DNA of 64,000 nucleotides from Thermoanaerobaculia bacterium (GCA_038245905.1 JBBRRY010000002.1:128001-192000), one strand, 5' to 3'. Positions 14,103-18,453 are shown, numbered from the stretch's first letter. A program made the numbers and translations. The notes: generated by a model from the sequence alone, not told the origin.

Positions 14103-14810
14103 GTGATCAACGTGAAGGCGTCCCGGTGCGTCGTTCTGTTCTCCAGGTCGTCCCAGAACGAAGGGGCCTTGAAAGGCATGCCCGGCCGCGGCCGGATCTT
14201 CGCGTTCTCCGCGTGTCGAGTGGCCGAGGCCGTACAGGCCCTAGGCGGGGTGGACCTGATTCTCGCAGGCGACGGACCGGCCCCGGAGGGAGCGCGTTTG
14301 CTGCCCCAGCGCGGTCGCGGGTTCGGCGAGCGCCTCAAGAACGTCTTCGAGGACGCGCGAGCGGCCGGCTACACGGAGATCATCACCGTTCCGGGGGACG
14401 TGCCGGGGATCTCCGCGACGCATCTCGACACCGCGTTCCGGGCGCTCGAGGCGCGCGATACCGTCCTCGGCCCGTCGGCCGACGGCGGAGTCTGGCTGAT
14501 CGGGCTTCGCGCCGGACCGACCGCTCTTTCGAATTTGTTCCAGAGAGTCCGATGGATGACCGCGAGTGTCTTTTCATCTCTCGTTCGGAACGCGCCCGAT
14601 GCGGCTCTTCTGGAAGTGCTTCTCGACGTCGATCGTCCATCCGACCTCGCGACCCTCGCGGCGGAGCAGGGTCTCGACCCGACTCTCGCCGCACTCCTCC
14701 GCTCGCTCCGGCCCGTCCCCGCCGCCCCCGAATGGGCCCGCCGGACGATTCCGCGCCGGCCCCGTCCCGTCGCTCCCTCCCGCGCGCCTCCTGCCCGGCT
14801 CGCCGCCTGA
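14103..14810 (+). CDS. DUF2064 / TIGR04282-like transferase (arsenosugar-cluster glycosyltransferase-like)
   Basis: QRGRGFGERL, GDVP, VLGPSADGGVWLIGL, DVDRPSDL; TAGCAT 6 nt upstream of GTG. Confidence 0.8.
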   Translation: MINVKASRCVVLFSRSSQNEGALKGMPGRGRIFAFSACRVAEAVQALGGVDLILAGDGPAPEGARLLPQRGRGFGERLKNVFEDARAAGYTEIITVPGDVPGISATHLDTAFRALEARDTVLGPSADGGVWLIGLRAGPTALSNLFQRVRWMTASVFSSLVRNAPDAALLEVLLDVDRPSDLATLAAEQGLDPTLAALLRSLRPVPAAPEWARRTIPRRPRPVAPSRAPPARLAA

Positions 14811-14860
14811 CGATTTTCCCCCCGCGGCCCGGACGACTCTCGAATTTCAGGAGGTTGGCG

Positions 14861-17359
14861 ATGACCGTTCTCGCGGAGCGGACCCCGCTCCACATTCCCT
14901 CGCTTCACGCGTTCCAGGAAGACGACGTCTTCTACGCCGTCGATGCCGAGGCGCCAAACTGGATCGCCACCGACGCCCGCGGCAAGCAGATCCTGCACGA
15001 GATCCGGAGCGGGGAGGACGCCGGAACGCCGCTCGCGTTCGGCTCTCTCGTGGCGCGCTGGGCCGCCGAGCATCAGCTCGAGGCGGGAAAGGCCTGGGTG
15101 CACGTTCACGATTTCCTGTGTGCTCTCGACCGGGCGGGCCTCCTTGCCGACGCGCCGTTCGTCCGCGCCCCGTATCCCGGCCGCGCCGCGCTCATCAAGC
15201 CGGCCGGACTCCACGAGCTGTGGCTGCAGATCAACAACGCCTGCAACCTCACATGCACGCACTGTCTCGTTTCGTCGGGCCCGGGCGGGGCGCCCGGCAT
15301 CGACGCCGCGGCGCTCGTGCGGCTCGTCGACCGCGCGAAAGAGCTTGGTATGGAACGCCTTTACGTCACCGGGGGCGAGCCCTTCCTCCGGAAGGACATT
15401 TTCGATCTCGCGAAACGCGCCACCGAAACCCACGGTGCCGAGATGATCATCCTCACGAATGCCACAGTTTTTTCGGGTGCCGTGAAGAAGGGACTCGAGA
15501 CGCTGGACCGCACGAAGGTGAAGTTTCAGGTGTCGATCGACGGAGCCCGCCCCGAGACGAACGACTCGATCCGCGGCGCGGGCACGTTCGACCGGGCGCT
15601 CGAAGGCGCGAAGCTCCTTTCCGGACTAGGCTTCGACGTCTCGTTGACGACGGTGACGACCGAAGAGAACCTTTCCGAGCTCGTCGAAATCCCCGCTCTC
15701 GTCAAACGCGTCGGCGCGAAGAGCCAGCACCTCATGTGGAGCCACAGGCGCGGCCGCGCGATCGACAGCGGAAACGGCTTCTTCCCGGGACACCTCGCAC
15801 TCGTCGAGGCCGTCCTCGCCGTCGTGGACGCCGCCCGGCGCGAGGAGACGACGCTCGACAACCTCGAAGCGATCAAACGGCGAGTGAACGGCGTGCCGGG
15901 CGTCAAGTACGATCTCGGAAACGCGGGATGGGACTCGATCTGCGTTTATGCTGACGGAAAAGTCTATCCGACGGCGGCCCTCGCGAACGAGCCCGCGCTC
16001 GTCTGCGGCGACGTGACGCGGCAGGATCTCGGGGACATCCTCGAATCCTCGACTGTCGTTTCGACACTTCGCGCCGCGACTCTGGCCAAGAAGCCTTCCG
16101 TGAGCTCGGACCCGTTCCGCTTCTTCACCGGCGGCGGCGACCTCGAGCACGCGTGGTGCTTCTCCGGCGGGGACTTCCACGGCGCCGATCCGTATTACCC
16201 GATCTCGGTCGCCCTCACGAAGAGCGTCATGACGACGCTCGGGCGCGAGAAGAGTATGCGCCGCAACCTTCGCTCGGGCTACGACGCGCCCCTCGTTCTC
16301 CACGCGATGGGAGAGGGCGCGATCGCCTGCGGCACCGCCGACGGCGCGGCCGCCGAGGAGCCGGTCTTGACGCTCCACTCCAACTGCGTCCTCTCTTTCG
16401 ACGTCGACAAGCCGCGCGCCAGGATGCGGGAGTTCTACGGTGCCGCCGCCGAAACGCCGCAGGCCGAGCTGTGCTGCCCCACGAAGTACGACGACTCGGC
16501 CGTCTCCCACATTCCCAAGGACGTGATCGACCGCTTCTACGGCTGTGGCTCGCCCATGACGACCGCCGGGATCCGCGAAGGCGAAATCGTCGTCGATCTC
16601 GGCTCGGGCGCCGGCATCGACGTCTTCATCGCGGCGAAGTTCGTCGGGAAAGACGGCAAGGCGATCGGCGTCGACATGACCGACCGGATGCTCTCGGTCG
16701 CGCACGAGAACAAGCCCAAGGTGGCCGCCGCGCTCGGCTACGACGTCGTCGAGTTCCGCGAGGGATTTCTCGAAGCGATCCCGGTCGAGTCGAAGACGGT
16801 CGATCTCGTCACCTCGAACTGTGTCGTGAACCTGTCGCCCGACAAGCCCCGCGTCTTCGAGGAGATCTGGCGCGTGCTGAAGGACCACGGGCGCATCGTG
16901 ATCTCGGACATCGTCTCGGAACGGGACGTTCCGCCGCATCTCAAGACGAACCCGCAGCTCTGGGGCGAGTGCCTCGTGGGGGCGCTCACGCAGGAGGGGT
17001 TCCTCGCGGGCCTCGAGCGCGCCGGATTCTACGGCCTCGAGATTCTGAAAAAGAGCTACTGGAAGGACGTCGAGGGATACCCCTTCTTCTCCGTGACCGT
17101 GCGCGGCTTCAAGTTCGAAAAAACGGCCGGCTGCGTCTTCAAGGGCCATCGTGCCGTCTACCTCGGACCGGGCAAGGCCTTTGTCGACGAGGAGGGCCAC
17201 CAGTTTCCGCGCAACGAAGCTTACGAAGTCTGCACCGACACCGTCGCGAAGCTCTCGAGCGCGCCATACAAGGGCTTTTTCGCGATTCTCGAGCCGGGAG
17301 AGGAGCGGGCGGGCTACGCGTGCTGCGCGCCAGGCGCCGATGGCACGGTGTGCTGCTGA
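14861..17359 (+). CDS. Radical SAM - ArsM-type arsenite methyltransferase fusion protein
   Basis: [37 protein letters not shown]-half [38 protein letters not shown], terminal ACC...VCC. Confidence 0.88.
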
Positions 17360-18453
17360 TGGGCGCCGTCCTCATCTTGCTCACGCTCGGCCTCGCGTTC
17401 GCGAACGGCGCGAACGACGTCTCGAAGGGTATCGCCACACTCGTGGGCTCGGGCACGACGAGGTACCGCGCCGCCGTGATGTGGGGATCCGCGTGGACTC
17501 TCGCGGGCGGCCTCGCGGCCTCGTTCGCGTCGCAGGGCCTCGTCGCCACGTTCAGCGGCAAGGGCCTCCTCGTGAACCCGCCCACCGGAAGCGCGTTTCT
17601 GCTCTCCGTCGCGTGCGGAGCGATTGCGTGGCTCCTCTTCGCGAACAGAGCGGGCCTCCCCGTCTCCACGACGCACGCGCTGACGGGCGCTCTCGCAGGA
17701 GCCGGGATCATGGCGGCAGGCGCTTCAGGCGTCGCGTGGCCTGCCGTCGCGAAAAAGGTGGCCCTGCCTCTCGCGCTCTCACCGCTTCTCGCGCTCGCCG
17801 TGATGCTCGTCCTCTCGCCCCTTCTCGCGCCCGTCCTCCGGCGCTTTCATCGTTTCTGTGTGTGCCTCGAGCGGCGCGAGACGGTTCCGGCGGCGTCCGC
17901 CGGGGCGACCGCTTCCATGAGCGTTTCGGGGCTGCCGGGCGTCGGTGTTCTCGCCGGCTCGGCCTGCCCTCCCGACACGCTCGTGCGCGTCAACGCGCTC
18001 GACACGCTCCACTGGGTGTCATCCGGGGCCACGAGCTTCTTTCGCGGGCTGAACGACACGCCGAAAATTCTCGCGCTCGGGTTCGTGGCCGCCACCGTCC
18101 AGGGGGTCGGACTCGGCGGCTCTTACCTGGCCGTCGCCCTCGCGATGGGTCTCGGAAGCGCGCTCGGCGGCTTCCGCGTCACCGAGACACTCGCCACGAA
18201 AGTCACGAAGATGACCCCCGACAAAGGCCTTCTCGCAAACCTCACGACGTCCGTGCTCGTGAGCGCCGCGTCGTTCTGGGCGCTCCCGGTCTCGACCACG
18301 CACGTTTCTTCGGGCGCGATCATGGGGATCGGAGCGGCCTCGAAGGCGGCGGGCCTCCAGTGGAAGACCGTCCGGGAGATGCTCCTCGCGTGGGTCGTGA
18401 CGCTGCCCGTCGCCGCGCTCCTCTCGGCCCTCGTCTTTCGCATGCTCTCCTGA
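17359..18453 (+). CDS. PiT-family inorganic phosphate/oxyanion transporter
   Basis: ANGANDVSK and GLNDTPK signatures, two PVSTTH motifs; TGATG overlap with upstream gene. Confidence 0.88.
   Translation: MGAVLILLTLGLAFANGANDVSKGIATLVGSGTTRYRAAVMWGSAWTLAGGLAASFASQGLVATFSGKGLLVNPPTGSAFLLSVACGAIAWLLFANRAGLPVSTTHALTGALAGAGIMAAGASGVAWPAVAKKVALPLALSPLLALAVMLVLSPLLAPVLRRFHRFCVCLERRETVPAASAGATASMSVSGLPGVGVLAGSACPPDTLVRVNALDTLHWVSSGATSFFRGLNDTPKILALGFVAATVQGVGLGGSYLAVALAMGLGSALGGFRVTETLATKVTKMTPDKGLLANLTTSVLVSAASFWALPVSTTHVSSGAIMGIGAASKAAGLQWKTVREMLLAWVVTLPVAALLSALVFRMLS

Follow-up and report, generated by a model that had tools for sequence, protein, structure and literature searches.

A radical SAM-ArsM fusion coupled to a PiT transporter in Acidobacteriota: a candidate accessory operon for organoarsenical biosynthesis

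Results

Gene organization of the fusion operon

We analyzed a stretch of 64,000 nucleotides (nt) from a Thermoanaerobaculia bacterium (GCA_038245905.1, JBBRRY010000002.1:128001-192000), referred to here as the window, which has a G+C content of 65-72%. At positions 14,103 to 18,453 it carries three genes, the second of which encodes an enzyme of the radical S-adenosylmethionine (SAM) type joined to an arsenite methyltransferase (ArsM). Our results suggest that this operon contributes to the synthesis of organoarsenicals. The labels used below are those of this analysis: L denotes loci, G genomes (G000 being that of the window), C contigs and P protein representatives.

The first gene (14103-14810, plus strand) has a GTG start and encodes a DUF2064 protein of 235 amino acids (aa); the second (14861-17359, plus strand) starts with ATG and encodes the fusion, of 832 aa. 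Both were delimited by a listing of open reading frames (ORFs) and by direct reading of the sequence. The third gene (17359-18453, plus strand) encodes a 364-aa anion transporter of the PiT/PHO4 family. A spacer of 50 nt lies between the DUF2064 gene and the fusion, and direct reading revealed an AGGAGG ribosome-binding site (14849-14854, plus strand) 6 nt 5' of the fusion ATG. The transporter is translationally coupled to the fusion by a TGATG overlap, in which the stop codon of the fusion (TGA, 17357-17359) and the start codon of the transporter (ATG, 17359-17361) have their A in common. A preliminary description of this DNA had reported three co-oriented genes, the last two joined by TGATG, and both the ORF listing and our reading of the sequence bore this out. 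The motif positions that it gave for the fusion were likewise all correct, namely CNLTCTHC at 15242-15265, CCP at 16472-16480 and YGCG at 16538-16549, along with SNCV (16814-16825) and WGEC (16961-16972), for which the values that it listed, 16820 and 16970, are those of the cysteine codons.

The C-terminal half of the fusion is a predicted ArsM

From its sequence, the C-terminal half of the fusion is predicted to be a complete ArsM (16451-17359, plus strand; residues 531-832 and the stop codon), with SAM-binding, arsenic-binding and C-terminal domains and a cysteine-rich tail that was read to end in CC (17351-17356, plus strand). This half matched Pfam Methyltransf_31 with 101.4 bits (cut-off 27). 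Its best NCBIfam match was the arsenite methyltransferase model NF008823, at 234 bits, which does not reach the cut-off of 263, and two other ArsM models of that collection also remained below theirs (NF040538, 202 versus 500 bits; NF038099, 155 versus 400 bits), suggesting that the ArsM of the fusion represents a distinct subfamily. The NF040538 match runs to profile position 355 of 356, indicating that the C-terminal domain of ArsM (~100 aa) is present; a Pfam search with the C-terminal 100 aa alone returned no family even at E≤10.

When the Protein Data Bank (PDB) was searched by phmmer with the ArsM half, it matched the ArsM proteins of Chlamydomonas (CrArsM, 5evj, E 5.5e-41) and Cyanidioschyzon (CmArsM, 4fr0, E 5.5e-39, and 4kw7, ~5e-39). 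The glycine-rich SAM loop, DLGSGAG, aligned to these structures, as expected of the class I SAM-methyltransferase fold, and C538, C562 (in YGCG), C654 (in SNCV) and C704 (in GEC) aligned to cysteines of CrArsM or CmArsM, C538 doing so with a cysteine of 5evj. The four conserved As(III)-binding cysteines of CmArsM are numbered C44, C72, C174 and C224. An AlphaFold2 model built from 35 homologues (mean pLDDT 85.7, pTM 0.85) gave consistent results in Foldseek, which recovered the ArsM structures 4rsr and 4fsd at E ~1e-21 with 33-34% identity over ~300 columns, and also human AS3MT (8xt7); these alignments spanned 289-311 columns of chains that are 322-333 residues long.

Conservation was assessed by aligning 35 fusions, with identities of 50-89%. 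Cysteines C538, C539, C562, C654 and C704 were invariant in all 35 homologues, which argues that the motifs did not arise by chance. The terminal C831 and C832 were near-invariant and lie in a tail that is modelled as disordered (pLDDT 33-42). Thus, the earlier identification of the middle protein as a radical SAM enzyme joined to a methyltransferase with the ArsM cysteines is supported by profile, PDB and Foldseek matches as well as by this invariance. The same description had named clustering of the methyltransferase with families other than ArsM as a refuting outcome; its nearest relatives in both sequence and fold were ArsM/AS3MT structures.

The N-terminal half resembles radical SAM peptide maturases

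The N-terminal half appears, from sequence comparison and the structural model, to be a radical SAM enzyme of the type that matures ribosomally synthesized and post-translationally modified peptides (RiPPs), in which the auxiliary-cluster cysteines have been lost. Its radical SAM core (15197-15760, plus strand; residues 113-300) contains the CNLTCTHC motif and a GGEP motif (15371-15382) and matched Pfam Radical_SAM with 83.3 bits (cut-off 29.5). Because C128, C132 and C135 of the CX3CX2C motif and T170-G171-G172-E173-P174 were invariant in all 35 sequences, this half looks catalytically competent.

The core is preceded by a putative winged-helix domain similar to PqqD and the RiPP recognition element (RRE) (14861-15196, plus strand; residues 1-112). 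Pfam returned no family for the N-terminal 120 aa alone, even at E≤10. In the AlphaFold2 model, this segment forms three strands followed by three helices with high confidence (pLDDT 91-96), and a hidden Markov model (HMM) of the segment matched the N-termini of P0140, P0147 and P0148, in which Pfam calls PqqD (29-40 bits). The assignment is made on the basis of this transitive homology and of the predicted fold. CteB and SuiB have N-terminal RREs, and CteB (5why/5wgg) was recovered by Foldseek with the N-terminal half over 475-486 columns, with a TM-score to the target of 0.68-0.70; the other structures matched were SkfB, SuiB, anSME, PqqE and ChlB. PDB sequence matches of this half were weak, PqqE being the best (E 6e-12), followed by BlsE and SkfB (to 3e-9).

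A domain with the SPASM fold follows the core (15761-16270, plus strand; residues 301-470). Its match to Pfam SPASM was borderline (20.6-22.6 bits), and in the alignment residues 301-475 have 3 cysteines, versus 9-10 in relatives that Pfam calls SPASM. At the positions of the CxxC...C and GGGCxC cysteines, the protein of the window has S, D, F, D/E/H and Y instead, and GGGCxC has become GGGDxEH (16130-16150). Two fused relatives, P0130 and P0133, retain 7-8 of the SPASM cysteines, suggesting that the loss occurred inside the fused family. A linker specific to the fusion (16271-16450, plus strand; residues 471-530) connects this domain to ArsM and includes a second SNCV (16379-16390, plus strand), which lies within an LHSNC509VL..D motif and recurs in many distantly related fused representatives. 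Among the 35 fusions, G424-G-G-D-x-E-H430 and the linker residues L505-H-S-x-C509-V-L..D514 were invariant, and C361, C382 and C490, the last of them in the linker, were near-invariant. Standalone ArsM proteins linked to ArsS align to the fusion only from about residue 532 on.

The radical SAM half had been described as a CxxxCxxC core and set beside ArsS and ArsL. The core stands, but the half is not ArsS-like: the ArsS model TIGR04167 gave 64.9 bits versus a cut-off of 300 and aligned at profile positions 4-150 only, and the RiPP-maturase type was found instead. Pfam found no DUF3641 in the fusion, and ArsL was absent from the 25 best of 87 NCBIfam matches, no ArsL model having been searched by name.

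Fusion of the two activities recurs in the radical SAM superfamily

With residues 1-500 as the query, an exhaustive search by phmmer recovered 25,794 representatives at E≤1e-3, of which 128 reached E≤1e-30. The best 150, representatives at 50% identity, were classified. An ArsM core was present on the same chain in 47 of these 150, and most of the fused members retained YGCG, SNCV and GEC. The order was radical SAM followed by ArsM in 23 (~650-850 aa), the same order with a C-terminal DUF5714 in 21 (≥940 aa), and ArsM followed by radical SAM in 3; the remainder comprised 49 radical SAM proteins with SPASM but without ArsM and 54 fragments. Fusions in both orders, at such depth, strongly indicate that the two activities belong to one pathway.

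Members of the branch with the additional C-terminal DUF5714 include P0135, P0160, P0166 and P0181, of ~1000-1080 aa. P0147 and P0148, which are close relatives of the radical SAM half and the only two members without ArsM that were scanned with Pfam, end in TusA in place of ArsM, suggesting a lineage whose targets are atoms borne by the cysteines of a fused domain.

A phosphate-type transporter is coupled to the fusion

The third gene product matched Pfam PHO4 with 209.7 bits (cut-off 33.7) over profile positions 1-350 of 350. It reached 91 bits with the PitA equivalog model (cut-off 800) and 65 bits with the CysP-type sulfate permease model. The genome also encodes a second PiT and a Pst system.

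Transporters were tallied in 70 fusion loci with at least 400 nt downstream of the fusion, PiT being located by tblastn with the transporter of the window. Directly after the fusion, PiT was encoded in 33 loci and Pst (PstS/PstC/PstA/PstB) in 9; none of the 70 had both, and 28 had neither. Among 10 loci with shorter flanks, 3 showed the start of a PiT gene. PstS belongs to a phosphate-binding family (TIGR02136, 164 bits). These results show that PiT and Pst are interchangeable as the coupled transporter, and their alternation, together with the phosphate-binding PstS, points to a phosphate-shaped anion, i.e. arsenate. Arsenate is known to enter cells via phosphate transporters. The recurrent coupling of PiT or Pst suggests deliberate acquisition of arsenate, which would be unusual.

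The DUF2064 protein is a divergent relative of TIGR04282

The first gene product matched Pfam DUF2064, a CofC/MobA-like transferase family, with 83 bits (cut-off 25.8). A scan with TIGR04282 had been suggested at the outset: the score was 92.9 bits, below the cut-off of 134, the match was confined to profile positions 69-189, and the PxPGRVKTRL loop is deleted in the alignment, GDVPG, DGG and DxD being retained. A protein of the same type at L014 also scored below the TIGR04282 cut-off, at 80 bits. By these comparisons, the protein is apparently a divergent, shortened relative of TIGR04282. In 25 Acidobacteriota loci, DUF2064 is encoded upstream of the fusion, at a distance of 42-107 nt.

Two DUF2064 paralogues that pass TIGR04282 are encoded elsewhere in the genome, one alone on contig C14 and the other on contig C78. 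At the latter site (positions 1-3075, L104), an AglJ-like family 2 glycosyltransferase (GT2) gene is followed by genes for a TIGR04282-passing DUF2064-Nudix fusion and a methylthioadenosine (MTA) phosphorylase (352 bits). The presence of MTA phosphorylase beside TIGR04282 is suggestive of the processing of adenosylated arsenicals, but it may equally be housekeeping. The gene of the genome most like TIGR04283 (149.5 bits, below the cut-off of 182) was considered and set aside as a partner, as it adjoins mobA, moaC and moaA on contig C7 and is unlinked to the fusion.

Distribution and partners of the fusion

Full-length relatives of the fusion number at least 120, with identities of 71-93%, and bear only generic names, such as 'methyltransferase domain-containing protein' or 'MoaA/NifB/PqqE/SkfB family radical SAM enzyme/SAM-dependent methyltransferase'. 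We collected 80 fusion loci at 49-93% identity, all from metagenome-assembled genomes (MAGs), which span Acidobacteriota (with Thermoanaerobaculia and Holophagales labels) and Gemmatimonadota and include two from Nitrospirota, one from Elusimicrobiota and one from a Chloroflexota bin. In the class, the fusion was detected at E≤1e-50 in 25 of 151 sampled genomes, a tally that includes the unpublished G140 and 2 genomes matching in the ArsM part only; in the genus, it was found in 2 of 9 other genomes. This patchy distribution indicates an accessory trait. A literature search, which left supplements and most subscription journals uncovered, found no description of a radical SAM-ArsM fusion, DUF5714, or a PiT in arsenosugar clusters.

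For the search for partners, ORFs of the loci were clustered, named by Pfam and NCBIfam and located by HMMs and tblastn, and the tally was restricted to loci flanked by 4 kb or more on each side, of which there were 42. DUF2064 was present in 20 of these, GT2 in 11, VTT/DedA in 20 and a flavoprotein resembling MerA and lipoamide dehydrogenase (PNDR) in 11; altogether, 37 of the 42 had one or more of PiT, Pst, DUF2064, GT2, DedA and PNDR. The GT2 proteins of L042, L027 and L078 pass TIGR04283 (227, 210 and 236 bits; cut-off 182), and the DUF2064 proteins of L042 and L078 pass TIGR04282 (196 and 195 bits; cut-off 134). Hence the fusion stands beside true TIGR04283 and TIGR04282 genes in other phyla. 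PiT, DUF2064, DedA and a reductase also occur in genuine ArsS/ArsM clusters (see below), and the arsenosugar link drawn in the preliminary description emerges stronger. The association typical of ArsS, with ArsM, TIGR04282 and TIGR04283, is found for the fusion family; the window itself has only the sub-threshold DUF2064.

A FastTree phylogeny of 77 fusions, built without rows shorter than 700 aa and with SH-like support values only, placed PiT-linked fusions in several Acidobacteriota clades and in Gemmatimonadota and Nitrospirota, with Pst-linked clades interleaved. The clade of the window comprises 11 rows and has the order DUF2064, fusion, PiT throughout, wherever flanks exist. Co-conservation of the three genes, on which the earlier proposal depended, is therefore uniform in this clade, and in the wider family 42 of 70 loci have PiT or Pst after the fusion.

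Small ORFs lying no more than 3 kb from the fusion, 2641 in all, were clustered, and no conserved precursor peptide emerged: clusters that crossed phyla were only antisense shadows of PiT or another gene, and no same-strand ORF of 25-95 aa within that distance was kept across phyla.

Two further observations concern individual branches. The fusion gene of a MAG from the same genus (L005:6001-8487) has one in-frame TAG, at codon 761, and the match in G093 also shows one TAG; the codon in L005 could reflect a pseudogene, a sequencing error or recoding. A Gemmatimonadota branch of 11 loci (L034, L044, L045, L047, L050, L054, L055, L057, L059, L072 and L080) has one or two DUF5916/CBM9 proteins and DedA encoded 5' of the fusion and neither PiT nor Pst; in 7 of these loci, as well as in L041, an antisense EamA transporter gene follows the fusion.

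Relationship to ArsS clusters

ArsS exceeded its cut-off in 58 of 301 sampled Acidobacteriota genomes, with 60 matches, a tally that includes the unpublished G201. We inspected ±8 kb around 20 of the 60 matches, chosen for long contigs and not at random, with G201 left out. ArsM was adjacent in 7 loci (in L140, its C-terminal part only), PiT directly followed ArsS in 2 (L138 and L144), DUF2064 and PNDR were present in 3 each and DedA in 2. The DUF2064 protein of L144 passes TIGR04282 with 157 bits, and a true TIGR04283 (232 bits) was found in 1 of the 20, at L132. In both L138 (6781-10040) and L144 (6790-10043), which are from Acidobacteriota, ArsM, ArsS and PiT follow one another on one strand, so PiT belongs to some classical ArsS clusters. 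ArsM appeared split in L136, L138 and L144, which hinted at in-frame stops or selenocysteine; none is present.

In BLAST comparisons, the ArsM half of the fusion shared 41% identity with the ArsS-linked ArsM of L144, over 322 aa (228 bits), and 38% with the ArsS-linked proteins of L138 and L136; with the canonical ArsM of its own genome, it shared 40% identity over 238 aa only (162 bits). The transporter of the window showed 44-45% identity to the ArsS-linked PiT proteins of L138 and L144 versus 30% to the other PiT of the genome, on contig C9. Among the proteins compared, the ArsM and PiT parts therefore appear to share ancestry with their ArsS-linked counterparts.

The genome of the window has no ArsS, its best TIGR04167 match being the fusion itself. 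ArsS exceeded the cut-off in none of the 5 genomes that carry the fusion beside TIGR04282 or TIGR04283 (none of 4 when the unpublished G002 is left out). Of 21 genomes of the class that carry the fusion, with a completeness of 93-100%, 1 had ArsS above the cut-off. This genome and a second one, with a partial ArsS match of 281 bits, both carry a distant variant of the fusion in a frame of ~1,100 aa. ArsS was found in none of the 13 genomes with a fusion of the close type (at least 61% identical).

A separate ars operon is present in the genome

The assembly comprises 3.80 Mb in 113 contigs and is 96% complete. A canonical ars operon, arsR-arsM-acr3-arsC-permease, lies on contig C43 (~9600-13300, minus strand; L105). 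Its products gave 56.9 bits for ArsR (HTH_5), 358 for ArsM (cut-off 263), 454 for Acr3 and 72 for ArsC of the low-molecular-weight protein tyrosine phosphatase (LMW-PTP) type; the permease has a TPFCSCS (CSC) motif, and the ArsM has CC..CC near its N-terminus. The fusion is thus not the only arsenic methylase of the cell. This operon has a MoaA-like radical SAM gene upstream and a gene for a CGGC-type cysteine-rich protein downstream. We considered whether the radical SAM gene next to arsR-arsM might be a split form of the fusion and rejected this, as it is MoaA-like (185 bits).

The only Acr3, the only LMW-PTP ArsC and the best HTH_5 ArsR match of the genome are all on contig C43; the contig of the window has no HTH_5 match, and there is no TIGR04283 match in C2:128001-192000. 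The statement that the window lacks arsR, arsC, acr3 and TIGR04283 holds for the models searched, among which the Grx-type ArsC (PF03960) was not included, and the fusion locus is, as proposed at the outset, distinct from the standard resistance operon.

Neighbouring genes

The genes flanking the operon are unrelated to it and encode an M14 peptidase, a SprT-like protein, a 3-hydroxyisobutyrate-dehydrogenase-like protein, an AAA_28 ATPase and a class III CoA-transferase, in addition to three further proteins. Two of these are small paralogues of ~152-155 aa, encoded directly 5' of the operon (12694-13161 and 13197-13655, plus strand), which have signal-peptide-like N-termini, belong to no Pfam family and are kept only in the loci of the closest relatives. 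The third is a tandem DinB_2 protein resembling mycothiol S-transferase (18505-19440, minus strand), whose gene converges on the end of the PiT gene and is kept only by close relatives; thiol transferases could be relevant to arsenic-thiol chemistry. No riboswitch or other RNA was found upstream by Rfam at E≤1 in 13400-15000, and a promoter and terminator scan of 13500-18800 revealed nothing exceeding shuffled expectation.

Discussion

Proposed function

To our knowledge, just two radical routes to carbon-arsenic bonds have been described, those of ArsS, which transfers an adenosyl group, and ArsL, which transfers an aminocarboxypropyl group. According to PMC13598754 and bioRxiv 10.1101/2024.02.01.577332, ArsS adenosylates trivalent dimethylarsenic (DMAs(III)) to give 5'-deoxy-5'-dimethylarsinoyl-adenosine (DDMAA). 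The bioRxiv study (10.1101/2024.02.01.577332) presents ArsL as a radical SAM enzyme with a CX3CX2C motif that forms the C-As bond of arsinothricin, with ArsM carrying out methylation. We propose that the operon described here is an accessory set for making organoarsenicals that go beyond simple methylarsenicals, by a pathway of the arsenosugar type or one of its variants, a reading to which we assign a probability of roughly 0.55. On the best reading of the sequences, a radical SAM enzyme that is unrelated to ArsS would have become joined to ArsM and displaced ArsS.

In the proposed pathway, PiT would import an arsenate-type oxyanion, which would then be reduced by the ArsC of the cell, encoded elsewhere. 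The ArsM half would bind As(III) on its four cysteines and methylate it with SAM. By analogy with ArsS, the radical SAM half would cleave a second SAM reductively, and a carbon radical would be added to the methylated As(III) held close by, which would form a C-As bond; the simplest radical to assume is 5'-deoxyadenosyl, as in ArsS. The DUF2064 transferase would modify the product, as might TIGR04283, DedA and a MerA-like reductase in other lineages. We infer the product, the direction and substrate of PiT, and the order in which methylation precedes As-C bond formation. One may speculate that arsenic is held or handed on by the invariant cysteine of the linker, by the GGGDxEH site or by the CC at the C-terminus. 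It is possible, though we regard it as doubtful, that the former maturase, which has GGGDxEH and the linker cysteine in place of its auxiliary clusters, forms the C-As bond in a manner unlike that of ArsS and ArsL, with arsenic passed on cysteines within one chain, and that Acidobacteriota and Gemmatimonadota make undescribed organoarsenicals from purposely imported arsenate.

Several points weigh against this proposal. The sequence of PiT does not reveal its substrate specificity (PitA, 91 versus 800 bits; CysP-type, 65 bits), and 28 of the 70 evaluable loci have neither PiT nor Pst. No partner was found in 5 of the 42 full-flank loci (L033, L035, L060, L067 and L074). The window has no TIGR04283, and its DUF2064 is sub-threshold for TIGR04282 and has lost the nucleotide-binding loop; moreover, the two TIGR04282-passing paralogues of the genome are in non-arsenic contexts, beside unrelated genes, which indicates that the TIGR04282 family is not specific to arsenic. 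Among the 20 ArsS loci, 13 show none of the partners, so the common partner set is a tendency and not a rule. The absence of ArsS from the 13 genomes with a close-type fusion is suggestive and not significant, its chance probability being ~0.06 at a background of 19% among genomes that are related. The descent of the radical SAM half from peptide-modifying enzymes means that its substrate could differ. Finally, as every carrier is a MAG, the absence of a gene may reflect a gap in the assembly.

Alternative explanations

Self-contained detoxification is an unlikely alternative, although the likeliest of the three considered here. In this case, the ArsM half would only methylate As(III) to a volatile or exportable species, and the radical SAM half would assist in that reaction, for instance as an Fe-S redox module restoring the reduced state of the catalytic disulfide when oxygen is absent, or as a demethylase or C-As lyase. 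PiT would be a mere entry route, and the enzyme would counteract the leak of arsenate through it. ArsM enzymes are known above all for detoxification, but this genome already has arsR-arsM-acr3-arsC. Arsenate does enter through phosphate transporters, but the coupling of an importer to a detoxifying enzyme would hardly be sensible. While a MerA-like disulfide reductase is a partner in 11 of the 42 full-flank loci, the partners TIGR04283 and TIGR04282 are transferases and not resistance genes, and the invariant GGEP and full radical SAM barrel would be needless for mere electron transfer. The patchy accessory distribution (25 of 151 in the class, 2 of 9 in the genus) is typical of resistance genes and fits this explanation.

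A metalloid or chalcogen other than arsenic (Se, Te or Sb), yielding organoselenium, organotellurium or organoantimony compounds, seems to us improbable. ArsM-type cysteine triads also bind Sb(III), some such enzymes methylate Se or Te, and DedA proteins have been linked to selenite uptake. The TusA domains that replace ArsM in P0147 and P0148 and the weak match of PiT to the sulfate-permease model (65 bits) are compatible with such a substrate. However, the alternation of PiT and Pst (33 and 9 of 70, never both), with PstS being phosphate-binding, points to a phosphate-shaped anion, namely arsenate, and both the ArsM half and PiT are closest to those of ArsS clusters, for which the arsenic chemistry is experimentally established (PMC13598754).

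Modification of a peptide, either a cysteine-rich one or the enzyme's own CC...CC tail, possibly with arsenic or methyl, is very improbable: the retained RRE-like domain, modelled with high confidence, the RiPP maturases among the best N-terminal fold matches (CteB over 475-486 columns, SuiB, SkfB and ChlB) and the disordered tail (pLDDT 33-42) with near-invariant C831 and C832 favor it, but no same-strand ORF of 25-95 aa recurs in several phyla within 3 kb, and the seven SPASM auxiliary-cluster cysteines of peptide maturases are gone. Ordinary ArsM proteins, too, often have cysteine-rich ends, such as the CC..CC near the N-terminus of the canonical ArsM of this genome.

Implications and comparison with known systems

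If organoarsenical biosynthesis is indeed the function of the operon, a third, non-homologous radical SAM lineage would provide a new entry to these compounds. Arsenosugar-like or unknown arsenic metabolites would then be expected in Acidobacteriota and Gemmatimonadota, which are major phyla of soils and sediments, and this would bear on the speciation of arsenic in soils, sediments and rice paddies.

The operon resembles four known systems to different extents. With canonical ars operons it shares an ArsM with the same cysteine motifs, but the window locus lacks their regulator, efflux pump and reductase and has an importer-type transporter instead. The peptide maturases CteB, SuiB, SkfB, PqqE and anSME have the same three-part fold as the N-terminal half (Foldseek E 1e-15 to 7e-12, TM-score 0.59-0.74); unlike them, the fusion has lost the auxiliary-cluster cysteines, has no conserved precursor gene nearby and is joined to ArsM. 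The pair of ArsL and ArsM offers the combination of a CX3CX2C radical SAM enzyme with ArsM, and NF040538 extends to the C-terminal end of the fusion (202 bits). Here, the difference lies in the score, 202 versus 500, and in the neighbours, which are transporters and transferases and not the arsinothricin set.

The pair of ArsS and ArsM differs from the fusion in that the radical SAM enzymes are homologous only in the common core, the fusion having an RRE-like domain and a cysteine-less SPASM fold, and in that both activities reside on one chain in the fusion; in addition, the window has no TIGR04283 and its TIGR04282 is degenerate. The two systems are alike in that both combine a radical SAM enzyme with ArsM and both have as accessory genes TIGR04282, TIGR04283, a PiT of the same subfamily, DedA and a MerA-like reductase.

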